NCBI RefSeq assembly: GCF_058153355.1
Contig: NZ_CM177019.1
DNA length: 64,000 nt
Direction: 5' to 3' (one strand)
The position numbers are program-made. This document shows, in pieces, positions 49,501 through 55,500 of this stretch. How positions within the stretch are numbered: position 1 is the first letter of the stretch; the number at the start of each line of letters is the position of its first letter.

Positions 49501-52500
49501 GCGCAGTGGACGTTCAAGCAGCCAGGTTTTACCGTCGAGTGTCAGCGTCTGTTTGCCTTCCTCTACGACGGTGCCGACACCAGTTGGCGTGAGAAAACCA
49601 CCAAGTCCAGCTCCACCACAGCGAATTTGCTCAATCAATGTACCTTGCGGTACGAGAACGACCTCCATTTCGCCAGAAATCATGCGCCGTCCGGTTTCCG
49701 GGTTGGTGCCGATATGTGAAGCAATTACTTTGCGGACTCGACCATTGACGATGAGCGGACCGATGCCGGTATCAACAAACGCGGTATCATTGGCTATCAA
49801 TGTCAGGTCGCGAACGCCAGATTCCAGTAATGCTTCCACCAGGCGGGATGGAGTGCCAATTCCCATAAATCCGCCCACCATGATGGTCATGCCGTCACGA
49901 AAGAAGCCGGAGGCGTCTTGTAATGTCATCAATTTTGTTTTCATTATTTATCCCTCTTGCATACACCGTTGTGGGTACAGTCAGGGAATAGCAAGGGGAG
50001 TGCCAGAATGAAAATGTTTGATATTGTTTTTTAACTTATTGAATAGTAAAGAATAAATAAGGTGGGGATTAAGAGGTTGAATGAACGGCTATGCAGAAAT
50101 TTGCGCACTGTGCAAATTTCTGCATAGCAAGTTTTGGCGTTATACATCCGCCGGATCGATACCGTATTCCTGGAGTTTATACATCAATGCACGGCGACTG
50201 ATGCCCAGCATTAAAGCAGTGCGGGTTCGGTTTCCTTCTTGTTGTTCCAGCACTTCCATAATGATGCGTTTTTCGACGCGTTTAATTTCCTCTTTTAAAT
50301 TACGCTCACCGACAGGGGCTGTTTTTGCTTCACCAGCACTACAGACTGGCTGACGAATCTGCGGCGGAAGATCCTCAGAAAAAATGATCGGGCCTGAATT
50401 CATCACGACGGCGCGTTCAATAACGTTGGAAAGCTCTCGAATATTTCCCGGCCATGACCATGCGGTAAGCAGTGACATTGCCATCGGATCGATGTCGATA
50501 ATATCGCGCTGATTCTCACTACTGAATTTTTGCAAAAAGTGATTAGCTAACAGGGAAATATCTTCCCGGCGATCGCGCAGAGGCGGCAGTATTAAATGAA
50601 TAACGTTAAGGCGATAAAAGAGATCTTCACGGAAGGTGCCTTCTTTCACCATTGCCTGCAAGTCGCGGTTGGTGGCAGCAATGATGCGGATATCAACTTT
50701 TATGGTCTGATGGCCGCCAATCCGTTCAAATTCCCGTTCCTGCAGAATGCGTAGTAATTTGGCTTGCAGTACCAGCGGCATTTCGCCAATTTCGTCGAGG
50801 AGCAGAGTACCTTCGTTGGCACGTTCAAATAATCCCTGACGCAAGGTTTGTGCACCAGTAAATGCGCCTTTTTCATGACCAAACAGTTCACTTTCGAGCA
50901 ACGATTCCGGCAGTGCCGCGCAGTTGACTTTAATGAACGGCCCCTTTGCCCGCCGCGAATTGTAGTGAATCGCTCTGGCAATCAACTCTTTCCCGGTGCC
51001 GCTTTCACCGCTAATCAAGACGCTGGCCTGAGAAAGGGCAATTTTGGCGGTGTCTTTGCAGATGTCCATCATCGCCGGGCTGTTGGTGAGAATGTGCCCC
51101 CATTGCCAGCTGGTGCTAAGTGCCTGGTGCAGATGACGGATCTCTTTTTTCATTGACTGGAGTTGTAAAGCGCGCTGAACGATTAAATTCAACTCATCGA
51201 GATCAAACGGTTTGATAACATAGTCGAAGGCTCCGCAGCGTAGTGCTTCGACGGCGGTTTCCACTTCAGCATAGGCCGTCATCAGAATAACGGGTGTCCG
51301 TGTCTCATGGCTGCGCATCTCCTTTAGTGCCTTGATGCCGTCCATCTCTGGCATGCGGGTGCGACAAGAAGTCGTCCAACATATTGTTTTGATAAATTAT
51401 TTATATAAAACCAACTATTCCATTAGTTGTAGCCTACTGAGGCAGGCAAAGCTGGTAACGGCTCTGTCTGAAGCCCTTGGGACAATGTAGCTTAGCAAAT
51501 ATTGCTTCAGTTAATCGTGAGAAAACCTGATCGCTACAAGCATCATGCGGCGAGAGCGCTAGGCTGGGCGGTATGGTTAACATAGTGAACTGTCGTTAAA
51601 CGTCGTAACAGAGAACGAGCCAAAGATGCTGATAGGCTTGCACCAAAAGGTAAGGGGTAAGGCTATTCCTGTTCGTAGTGGGAATACATGGACAATAACT
51701 CCCCCGGCGGATAGACAGAACCTAACCCGTTCTTTGTATGTTGGTCGGAACTTGGTAAGCCCGAATTCTCGCCCTAGTGGCAGGGGCACCGTAAGGCAAA
51801 CTGATGAGAATGCGGGTAAAGGAGGATGGAAAAAGCGAAAGCCGGACTGTAATCGTGCGGATAGAGGTTCAATATTTGCCTTAACGGGAAACCGTGCTGA
51901 CTTCCATCTGGTCTTTAATTGCGAAACATCTGCGAAGGTTTCTTTGGATGACATGTATGAAAATTACATCTAACAATGTAACTGCGGTCATCAACGGAAA
52001 AGGTTGGCATTCCATTAACTGGAAGAAATGCCATCAACACGTTAAAACCATACAGACAAGAATCGCAAAGGCGGCATGTAACCAGCAATGGCGTACAGTC
52101 GGTAGATTGCAACGATTGCTGGTTCGCTCATTCAGCGCCAGAGCACTGGCGGTGAAACGAGTTACGGAAAATAGCGGGCGTAAAACCCCCGGAGTTGATG
52201 GTCAAATCTGGAGTACTCCAGAATCAAAATGGGAAGCGATATTCAAACTCAGGCGAAAAGGGTACAAGCCCCTACCGCTAAAAAGAGTTTTTATACCCAA
52301 ATCTAATGGCAAGAAAAGACCATTAGGAATCCCCGTCATGCTTGACAGGGCAATGCAGGCCCTGCATCTGCTGGGATTGGAGCCTGTATCGGAAACTAAT
52401 GCAGATCACAACAGTTATGGTTTCAGACCAGCGCGATGTACGGCTGACGCCATTCAACAGGTATGTAATATGTATAGTTCCCGGAACGCCTCGAAATGGG

Positions 52501-55500
52501 TTCTGGAAGGCGATATTAAAGGATGCTTTGAACACATTAGCCACGAGTGGCTGCTTGAAAATATTCCTATGGACAAGCAAATACTCCGTAATTGGTTGAA
52601 AGCCGGGATCATCGAAAAAAGCATATTCAGCAAAACTCTCTCGGGTACACCCCAGGGAGGAATCATATCTCCAGTTCTGGCAAACATGGCCCTGGATGGA
52701 CTGGAAAGACTGCTGCAAAATCGCTTTGGTCCGAAACGCTCAAAAACATTCAGGAAACATCAGGTTCACTTCGTCCGGTATGCTGATGATTTCATCATTT
52801 CCGGAAAGTCGAAAGAACTTCTGGAGGAGAATGTTCTTCCGTTGGTGAAATCATTTCTTGCAGAAAGAGGGCTGACGTTATCCGAAGAGAAAACGGTCAT
52901 CACTCACATTACTGACGGATTTGATTTCCTTGGGCAGCACGTCCGACGCTTCGGTAGAAAACTCATAATCAGACCAGCCAAGAAAAACGTTAAACAATTT
53001 CTTAGCAAGATCAGAGAGACTATTGAAGGTAACCGAACGGTTCCTGCATGGGTGCTAATAAATCTGCTTAATCCAATCATCACCGGGTGGGCAAACTATC
53101 ACCAACATGTAGCATCGGCAGAGACATTTAACTATGTCGACAACCAAATCTGGCGCAAAATCTGGCAGTGGTGCAGAAGGAGACATCCCGGCAAAGGCCG
53201 GAGATGGATCTTCCGAAAGTACCACACGACAATAAAAATGTGTCATGGTCGATTTTATGGAGTCGATCCGGAGGGTAGGAAATATGTTCTGTCCCGGGCC
53301 AGCGACATCCATATTAATCGCTATATAAAAATAAAGGGAACGGCAAATCCATATGATCCCGAGTGGGAAACATACTTCGAAAGAAGGCTGGACTACTCAT
53401 GGAAGAAATCCCAACAGGGGCAGAAAAGGATTCTCGCTATATGGAAAAGGCAAGGATCGCGCTGCCCTTTATGTGAGCAACCGATTAATCGCGATACAGG
53501 ATGGAATGTTCATCATTTGCTCAAGAAATCTCTTGGCGGTAGCGATGATGTGAGCAATTTAGTCCTACTCCATCCCAACTGCCATCGACAACTACATAGT
53601 AATGACGCTGGTCTCCCACAAGGTGGAGGCTTATAAAGGCTTGAGCGGTATGCGGGGAAACTCGCACGTACCGTTCTTAGGGGGCGGCGAGACAGTAATG
53701 AATCGCTGCTACCCGACATATCCATCAACACCACGTCAGGGTGAATATCGGCAAACAGGTGTAATGCTGTGCGCCCGTTGTTCGCACAATGTGTTTCGAA
53801 TCCTTGAAGTGCAAAAGCGGTGCTCAGCATACGGCGAACATTATCTTCATCATCCACAATAAGGATGCGATTAATAGCAGTCATACAGTCTGATTTCCCT
53901 GCGGGTTGATCGGTAAAATAAGCGTGAAGGTTGCGCCGTAGCCCGGCAAACTGGCGACGCGAATATCACCCTGATGGGCATTAATGATGCGTTGACTTAA
54001 CGCCAGACCAAGCCCGGTTCCTGAGGCTTTGGTAGTGAAAAAGGGATCGAAGATCTTTTTTTGCAGCGAGAGATCAATGCCACTGCCGTTGTCCTCTATC
54101 GAAATGGCCTGTTGTGAGTCGCTATACTGCCAGGTTCGAATGCGAATTTTCCCTCGTGCACTGATAGCCTGGACGGCATTGATCAGGATATTCAGTAGTA
54201 CCTGTTTGAGCAGTTCACGATCGGCGTTAATCGGGCTTAATTCATTATCCAGTTCGCTTATGAAGTCGACCCGCGCTTGTACGCCGGCGGTTTGTACCAG
54301 TACCAGAGTTTCTTCAACCAATGCATTGAGGCTGACTTGTTGCCATTGATTGTGGCGTGGGCGTGAAAATTCGAGCAATTGCTGAATAACTTTGTTAATT
54401 GAATCGATTTCTTTGAGTACTACGGACAGATATTCCTGATGTATTGGGTCACTGGTTTGTTGGCGCAAGATCTGTACATAACCACGAATAGCCGTTAACG
54501 GATTACGTACTTCATGCGCCACGCCAGCCATCAGCTCACCCAGTGTGGCGAGGCGTTCTGCTTGCGCCATGCGGCGCTGGGTTTCTTTGCGGGCAGTTAA
54601 ATCAGAGAAAATCACCAAAGCACCTATCATTTCACCGTGCGTGTTATGAATACGACTGGTAGTGACACTGAGTTCAATGGTGCGGTCACGGCCTGGAAAA
54701 CTGATCTCCAGCGCCACATGTTCGGTGCCATGTTCCAGCGTATCCAGTACTGGACTGTAGAACGGAGTATTGTCGAACAACATGGAGTAAGGCTGCCCTA
54801 CCAGTTCATGACGTTGATAGCCAGTGATGACTTCTGCTGCCGGGTTCATGGTGGTTACATCACCCTGGCGGTCAATGGCAATGACGCCATCGGCAGCGTT
54901 TTCAATAATCAGATCGTTAAGTGTTCGCGTTTCACGCAGTGCCTGGGCGAGGTTGTTGACACTCTGACTAATTTGCCCCATTTCACCGGGCAATTGTGGT
55001 AATCGAGTGGGAATATTTTGCGCCAGAGTCGCGAGACCATCGGTGATGATATCTATATTGGCGCTCAGGCGACGGGAGAAAAGGACAATCAACAGCAGGC
55101 TTATCAGCAAACCGGCGGTGAGCACAATGATAATCCTCACATCCATTTTCCAGGCCTGGCGGCGAATATCTTCGGTTAATTCATTGGCCCAGATATAACC
55201 GAGGATTTCACCATTACGCTCAATGGGGATCATTGAATTCAAAATATCGCCGCGCACCTGCCTGCCTGAATAAATCAAAGGAGTATTTGTACGCATGACT
55301 TCGCGACCAGGGTGATCTGCGGCAATAGTAACGCCCACATTATTCTGATACAGCGCTGAAGGCGCGTAAGTGATTATCGCATCCAGCGTTTTGTTGTAAT
55401 AACCAGCGCCTATGCCAGGAAAGGCGTGAGTGATATTTTCAGTAATGGGAGCAAGTTCTGCATTCAGTGCGTGGATTCGCTCCTCACGTGGTAAGTCGTT

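Follow-up and report, generated by a model that had tools for sequence, protein, structure and literature searches.

The response-regulator gene atoC on contig NZ_CM177019.1 (NCBI RefSeq assembly GCF_058153355.1) is split in two by a complete group II intron lying in antisense orientation, as disclosed by the analysis of a 64,000-nucleotide (nt) stretch of this contig, hereafter the window. The intron comprises 2,359 nt (positions 51359-53717, + strand) and combines a IIB1-type ribozyme with an intact CL1-type protein. Very probably, a IIB1/CL1 intron of a plasmid lineage was guided by its own RNA to an ectopic site, where its retro-insertion antisense into atoC would have split AtoC and abolished the induction of the atoDAEB operon. 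The anatomy and boundaries of the element, the home sites of its family, the covariation between intron and target and the pairing at atoC were observed directly; the plasmid source, the route of priming and the phenotypic loss of function are inferred.

The element starts with GTGCG at 51359 and ends with ...CUACCCGAC at 53717, in agreement with both the GUGYG and AY consensus ends; the GTGCG start, GAC end and + strand location that an earlier note on this DNA had proposed are correct to the base. A scan of the whole window against Rfam, with gathering scores of 34 bits for RF02012 and 40 bits for RF00029, places (i) a domain I segment at 51411-51558 (+ strand; RF02012, group-II-D1D4-7; 112.5 bits, E = 7e-23) and (ii) domains V and VI at 53641-53717 (+ strand; RF00029; 65.5 bits), the latter match stopping exactly on the proposed 3' boundary. 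Domain V (53643-53676, + strand; fold and RF00029) comprises a 14-bp hairpin with an AGC triad, a 2-nt bulge and a GAAA loop, and the fold of domain VI (53680-53714, + strand) displays a bulged branch-point A at 53711, the seventh nt from the 3' end. The earlier note had proposed folding as a check on the element, and domains V and VI fold as required: the last 81 nt (53637-53717) reach -40.2 kcal/mol (z = -5.2), with none of 200 shuffled sequences as stable. In addition, a consensus fold of domains I to IV, built on nine sequences including the intron EcI5, contains 176 pairs, and compensatory changes support 55 of these. The non-coding RNA of the intron totals about 680 nt.

The intron-encoded protein (51957-53636, + strand) comprises 559 amino acids (aa) followed by a stop codon, with the Pfam domains RVT_N (residues 17-98), RVT_1 (the reverse transcriptase, 113-329, with an intact YADD motif at 275-278), GIIM (maturase domain X, 345-422) and HNH (503-548), the domain content that the earlier note had read on the + strand. 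The protein scores 369.5 bits with the NCBIfam model TIGR04416, the equivalog of group II reverse transcriptase/maturases, and so exceeds its cut-off of 300. Among solved structures, its closest relative is the T.el4h reverse transcriptase (PDB code 6ME0, chain C), matched end to end at 627 bits (E = 2e-187), and LtrA (138 bits) and the IIC enzymes give far weaker matches. Sequence identity reaches 53% with the EcI5 protein of pO157 and 60% with the protein of a very common IncF-plasmid intron; the 5' 600 nt of the element can be aligned with EcI5 throughout. Both of these relatives, T.el4h and EcI5, combine a IIB1 ribozyme with a protein of the CL1 lineage (PMC8643678). Because the protein matches T.el4h and EcI5 and the ribozyme aligns with EcI5, the element is classified, by similarity rather than by formal phylogeny, as a IIB1/CL1 intron related to both, which also supplies the protein classification suggested in the earlier note.

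Removal of exactly 51359-53717 yields a 461-aa AtoC reading ...VVLMDIRMPEMDGIK..., restoring the frame as the earlier note had claimed, and no other in-frame shift of the boundaries tried within 3 nt of either end gives DIRMPEMDG. With 99.9% DNA identity to annotated atoC, the reconstructed gene is a genuine atoC, and the reconstructed empty site aligns without gaps with atoC/atoS in 3,911 of the 5,426 complete Escherichia coli genomes, at up to 99.9% identity. The junction, GAT AT/C (the slash marks the insertion point here and below), lies two nt into the codon of Ile56, just after the phospho-acceptor Asp55; the earlier note was right in placing the break at this aspartate, but the reading frame is cut inside codon 56 and not cleanly after residue 55. 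No atoC bases are lost or duplicated at either junction. The gene is thus left as (i) a 5' fragment of codons 1-55 plus two bases of codon 56 (53718-53884, - strand), identified by translation and by the match of NF008469 to residues 1-56, and (ii) a 3' fragment running from the last base of codon 56 to the stop codon (50140-51358, - strand), identified by translation. AtoC is no longer encoded as one polypeptide of receiver, AAA+ and helix-turn-helix domains, the gene being split inside codon 56. The 5' fragment continues into a chimeric open reading frame (ORF) of 123 aa, recovered from the ORF list (53513-53884, - strand), that joins AtoC residues 1-55 to 68 residues read from the antisense intron. 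Upstream in the same operon, the sensor kinase gene atoS (53881-55719, - strand) is intact, and so are all four ORFs of the target operon atoDAEB (46098-49944, - strand), both assigned from ORFs and from the RefSeq annotation of the matching region.

The atoC::intron junction is apparently unique among the genomes, plasmids and metagenomes searched. Exact-protein look-ups in the public assembly collection recovered no gene with exactly the product of the 123-aa chimeric ORF or of the 404-aa C-terminal ORF held by the 3' fragment; the 5' end of the intron was absent from the species-representative genomes, and the metagenomes yielded hok-type sites only. This lack of a second record of the junction in the assembly collection, the representative genomes and the metagenomes, together with the otherwise exclusively plasmid location of the intron in complete genomes, is what an assembly artefact joining a plasmid-borne intron to chromosomal atoC reads would leave behind. 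Such an artefact is nevertheless extremely improbable: both junctions fall on base-exact intron ends with the atoC sequence neither lost nor duplicated, no hok/srnB sequence accompanies the intron, and the flanks match the exon-binding sites of this very intron at a chance of about 3e-6 per position, unlike a random chimera.

The relatives of the intron highlight a well-defined home. Matches occur in three of the 5,426 complete E. coli genomes, all three on plasmids at about 97% identity and two of them covering the whole intron, and none of these genomes carries the intron on the chromosome. A plasmid collection contributed 20 full-length relatives, most on IncF replicons and lying under genes annotated as Hok/Gef or type I toxins; the closest, on the IncF plasmid pRHB33-C08_2 of E. 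coli, is 99.6% identical, and the others stand at about 97% in E. coli and Escherichia albertii and at 77-80% in Salmonella, Citrobacter and Enterobacter. At every locus opened that has a toxin gene, the intron lies in the sense orientation of that gene. Removing the intron from the plasmid loci restores toxin ORFs ending ...TLAYE/ARK, ...MAYE/SGGK or ...MAYE/SAK, each followed directly by the stop codon, and five metagenome contigs retrieved by the 5' end of the intron share the identical junction ...ATGGCTTACGA/. Since excision restores the toxin ORFs and the metagenome contigs share one junction, the home site of the family, as read from these loci, is the set of conserved A-Y-E codons located four to five codons before the hok/srnB stop. 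As the family resides in sense within hok/srnB, toxin expression and the 3' fold-back element of the hok mRNA would depend on splicing. Literature searches on group II introns in combination with hok, srnB or atoC found no publication on the subject; the IncF plasmid papers that surfaced mention other introns, namely E.c.I11 and an intron downstream of ycjA.

The exon-binding sites (EBSs) of the intron and the intron-binding sites (IBSs) of its targets were assigned by covariation across this family and read in the geometry set experimentally for IIB1 introns, in which IBS1 spans target positions -6 to -1 and, after a 2-nt gap, IBS2 spans -13 to -9, with position -14 (IBS2a) in a Watson-Crick pair with the nt two upstream of EBS2 (PMC8643678). 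EBS2 is CAGAG (51609-51613, + strand), in the unpaired multibranch loop of domain ID of the consensus fold and homologous to EBS2 of EcI5; it covaries with the target, CAGAG occurring with CTCTG and CATGA with TYATG. EBS1 is UCGUAG (51673-51678, + strand), in a hairpin loop whose closing stem is backed by the alignment fold; its 3' G or A covaries with C or T at target position -6, UCGUAA lying by TTACGA and UCGUAG mostly by CTACGA. Both sites align with those defined by experiment in EcI5. The putative EBS2a is A (51607, + strand), two nt 5' of EBS2, assigned by homology only through column alignment with EcI5 of pO157, in which this position is U. Three earlier candidates, CCGUAAG near 51796 for EBS1, GCCA at 51619 for EBS2 and a hairpin-loop CCAUU at 51420, were displaced by the covariation and by the EcI5 alignment.

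At atoC, all parts of the target are recognizable on the + strand. IBS2, CTCTG (51346-51350), forms five of five Watson-Crick pairs with EBS2 and is the same as in the srnB home site; IBS1, ATGCGG (51353-51358), forms five of six pairs with EBS1, including two G.U wobbles, with a mismatch at -6; IBS2a, T at position -14 (51345), is complementary to the putative EBS2a A; and IBS3, position +1 (53718), is A, as at every family site with a 3' flank read. The atoC site, T-CTCTG-GC-ATGCGG/A, and the srnB site, A-CTCTG-GC-CTACGA/A, share 10 of their 13 nt over -13 to -1. Beyond +1 or +2, the 3' exon does not resemble that of the home sites. The mimicry is fortuitous: read on the antisense strand, the codons for the conserved receiver motif D-I-R-M-P-E happen to give the target sequence of the intron. 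A random position has a chance of 2.6e-6 of satisfying the pairing criteria, or 1e-5 when -14 is ignored, and atoC is the sole site that does so in the intron-less window, both strands considered (123 kb scanned). Since the site satisfies these criteria at about 3e-6 per position, the insertion bears the marks expected of RNA-guided reverse splicing at a chance look-alike of the homing site and does not resemble random integration or recombination.

Compared to EcI5 (E.c.I5, from pO157 of E. coli O157:H7), the atoC intron shares (i) a ribozyme that can be aligned throughout domains I-III and V-VI, (ii) the target geometry, in which IBS1 at -6 to -1 is followed upstream by the 2-nt gap, by IBS2 at -13 to -9 and by a putative IBS2a at -14, (iii) the order of the protein domains, including HNH, and (iv) carriage of the family on IncF-type plasmids. 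The two differ in EBS2 (ACCAG in EcI5, CAGAG in the atoC intron) and EBS2a (U and A, respectively), the proteins are only 53% identical, EcI5 is not located in a hok gene, and the bases critical for contacts with the EcI5 protein, C-18, C-17 and T+5, are absent from the sites found here. T.el4h (Th.e.I3 of Thermosynechococcus, with the cryo-electron microscopy ribonucleoprotein structures 6ME0 and 6MEC) provides the closest solved protein over the full length, and its basic residues R327, K332 and K336, which clamp the EBS2a-IBS2a pair, are conserved as R330, K335 and R339 in the protein of the atoC intron. On the other hand, T.el4h has a cyanobacterial host and another target, and its Gly173, which contacts target position -15, aligns with Gln167; the published link between -15 and protein residue 173 was not applicable, there being no rule for Gln. 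The EcKTE56.groEL-type introns are likewise IIB1/CL1 elements tied to a gene context near a stop codon, but the base of their domain I is extended by a subdomain Ia of 300-700 nt, an insertion that the atoC intron lacks, and EcKTE56.groEL made no ectopic insertions in the reported assays (bioRxiv 10.1101/2024.12.23.630110).

Other copies of the lineage are found away from toxin genes. The 559-aa protein is identical to that of three short contigs from other sequencing runs, and copies one nt different from the window intron occur in two Logan assemblies. One of the latter (Logan SRR31800506, positions 13-2371) lies on an E. coli chromosome in a repetitive extragenic palindromic (REP) element between a leu tRNA cluster and rsmC; the corresponding empty site of strain KE55 (about 1199/1200 of the retrieved locus) reads cttatctggcctacga/agggc and pairs with the intron at six of six positions of IBS1 and four of five of IBS2, with T at -14 and A at +1. 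A hok-type copy on E. coli plasmid pRHB40-C01_2 (positions 1501-3859) sits outside a toxin gene, between integrase and AraC-family genes; its flank, ...gtcatggctttcga/acaatg, matches five of five positions of IBS2 with one mismatch in IBS1, and represents another ectopic insertion. Because both the rsmC-REP and the pRHB40-C01_2 copies sit outside toxin genes, the lineage, judging from these loci, makes ectopic insertions in nature, including chromosomal ones. The intact ORF and ribozyme and the near-identical copies at three different sites are indirect signs that the intron is active and mobile, and that it may be competent for both splicing and retromobility.

Several points weigh against guided insertion from a plasmid donor as the full account of the allele. 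No plasmid and no second copy of the intron lies within the window, so that the donor is deduced from relatives. About 25-105 equally good sites are expected per 5-Mb genome, and pairing alone leaves the choice of atoC unexplained. EBS3, the partner of the +1 A, is not assignable from the alignment. As evidence, the strand orientation amounts to one event, for which the prior probability is 50%. Finally, the -14 rule is broken at the own hok/srnB sites of the family, which casts doubt either on how EBS2a was assigned or on how much it matters in this lineage.

The pattern at position -14 is peculiar. Facing EBS2a, an A-T pair is formed at atoC and at rsmC-REP, A.A is found at the resident srnB sites, and G.T, G.A or G.G at the hok sites, the hok-type introns (EBS2a = G) adjoining T, A or G at -14 and never C. 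The strict published EBS2a-IBS2a rule for IIB1 introns is consequently broken at the resident hok/srnB sites and satisfied at both chromosomal ectopic sites. Three explanations are possible: (i) the strict -14 rule is relaxed in the family; (ii) the A directly 3' of EBS2 extends the EBS2 helix onto the -14 T instead; or (iii) the srnB-type sublineage has drifted, and its new DNA insertions favour T at -14. A bolder proposal, to which we give little credence at present, is that an undescribed IIB1 lineage has specialised in the last codons of hok/srnB, in which an srnB-type EBS2a A that mismatches the resident A and matches T would steer new insertions to chromosomal look-alikes, such as atoC and the REP element near rsmC. 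If this retargeting were true, the intron would be a natural, self-retargeted 'targetron' that knocks out genes in wild Escherichia/Shigella. Of wider interest than the atoC event itself may be the family that homes to hok/srnB, with its odd pairing at -14.

In the favoured account of guided ectopic retro-insertion, an intron of the hok/srnB-resident IncF lineage would have formed a ribonucleoprotein in the host cell and reverse-spliced into the + strand of the window, that is, the antisense strand of the atoC D-I-R-M-P-E codons, the target being chosen by pairing of intron RNA with DNA through EBS2/IBS2 and EBS1/IBS1 as well as at positions -14 and +1. Once inserted, the RNA would have been copied into DNA from a primer that may be either the bottom strand nicked by HNH or a nascent lagging strand. 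Priming of the complementary DNA by a nascent Okazaki fragment at the replication fork, independent of the endonuclease, in place of bottom-strand cleavage by HNH, is a real possibility that we place somewhat short of even. The GC skew is positive on the + strand over all 64 kb and indicates that this strand is the leading-strand sequence; the intron sense strand is thus leading-strand sequence and the invaded strand the lagging-strand template, a configuration suited to fork priming, and group II introns are documented to use nascent strands as primers (PMC3898094). The divergence of the 3' exon from the home sites beyond +1/+2 points in the same direction, as recognition by the protein for second-strand cleavage may be poor. 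However, the HNH domain is intact, the relatives EcI5 and T.el4h use target-primed reverse transcription, and one insertion cannot establish a strand bias; with the HNH domain intact, classical target-primed reverse transcription is equally possible.

A precedent for the event comes from Ll.LtrB, for which ectopic insertion has been described at a non-cognate site resembling IBS2/IBS1 (PMC3898094). Ll.LtrB is, however, a IIA intron with an ML-lineage protein, and its events were selected in the laboratory, whereas atoC::intron is a natural chromosomal allele. The comparison extends to the consequence, since antisense insertion, in Ll.LtrB as in antisense targetrons, results in a non-conditional disruption in which only the complement of the intron is transcribed, the principle of targetron knockouts (PMC3898094).

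The same holds at atoC. The intron lies opposite to the gene, as the earlier note had recognized, and is not removable from atoSC transcripts because its complement is not a ribozyme; these transcripts would carry the intron complement only, no splicing would take place, AtoC would be cut beside Asp55, and the sigma-54-dependent induction of atoDAEB should be lost. The predicted N-terminal product (AtoC residues 1-55 followed by 68 unrelated residues) would have neither an AAA+ nor a DNA-binding domain and only a minor part of the receiver fold. Much the most likely, from the reading of the locus, atoC is a null allele. The strain is thereby predicted to lose AtoSC-dependent catabolism of acetoacetate and short-chain fatty acids, the rest of the ato system being intact. 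Such a loss is clearly tolerable, since about one in four complete E. coli genomes has no ato locus, and the still intact atoS and atoDAEB suggest that the insertion is recent.

A route to residual function would be a C-terminal AtoC fragment, initiated at Met58 or a later start, that escapes receiver control and constitutively activates atoDAEB. From the ATG at 51354 (Met58), a reading frame of 404 aa is open, and a constitutive allele, atoC(c), is I129S (PMC5699524), a substitution that maps to the receiver/linker dimer interface on the NtrC1 structure (PMC5406848) and suggests negative control by the N-terminal part; a literature search for AtoC D55 found nothing. The earlier note had pictured this fragment as receiver-less, a description that does not hold: starting at Met58, it retains approximately residues 58-125, about half of the receiver domain. 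With half the receiver and the I129 region kept, it is unlike the clean deletion that activates NtrC1-type proteins. Nor is its expression from 51354, which the earlier note had considered feasible, supported. The duplex with the anti-Shine-Dalgarno sequence amounts to +0.4 kcal/mol at Met58 and -1.7 at Met61, compared with -5.1 at the native atoC start; the sole strong Shine-Dalgarno-like motif, AAGGAG, abuts the ATG of Met70 with zero spacing; and, within the intron, promoter prediction gives no sigma-70-like site on the minus strand. In addition, an mRNA started at the atoS promoter would meet the stop codon at 53513 and then extend, untranslated, through about 2.2 kb of antisense intron, which may expose it to Rho-dependent polarity. 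An active, unregulated fragment is therefore improbable, and the null allele is preferred.

Natural gene inactivation by antisense insertion of a group II intron is uncommon. Bacterial group II introns have been reported to seldom interrupt chromosomal housekeeping genes (PMC6003770). Against this background, the atoC locus provides a clean case in which the sequence gives the donor lineage together with its home site, its exon-binding sequences and the mimic target, and it indicates that an intron carried on a plasmid can cause insertion mutations in an E. coli/Shigella-type chromosome. What is new is the insertion site and the apparently unique allele; the class of retroelement and its mechanism are known, and the intron itself is annotated but uncharacterised.

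The surroundings of atoC bear on the identity of the host. A lambdoid prophage takes up the first 36.7 kb of the window (1 to about 36700), with a replication/nin module 94% identical to that of Stx2a phages and with the stx gene absent; the place after the prophage tRNA genes (tRNA-Asn and tRNA-Thr, 8691-8846), considered for stx cargo, is occupied by an ordinary lysis cassette of holin, lysozyme and Rz (8885-10139). The right end of the prophage, by yfaS, carries a gene for an IpaH-family type III secretion system effector, an E3 ubiquitin ligase (36724-38487, - strand; 563.6 bits against a cut-off of 550), and the best DNA matches are to enteroinvasive E. coli. For core chromosome, the yfaS-atoC backbone (39500-51358) is unusually divergent: its best match among the 5,426 complete E. 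coli genomes reaches 98.9% identity. The host is probably a Shigella-type or enteroinvasive E. coli-type lineage poorly represented among complete E. coli genomes; because the best long-flank match is only 98.9%, lack of the insertion in the closest relatives cannot be shown.

The Rfam scan also identified isrK (5340-5416) and a C4 antisense RNA (5444-5528) within the prophage. A hit to the REP-derived naRNA4 (58836-58912, both strands) lies downstream of rcsC, and MicF (62580-62673) upstream of ompC; these two are ordinary E. coli features that confirm the map position.

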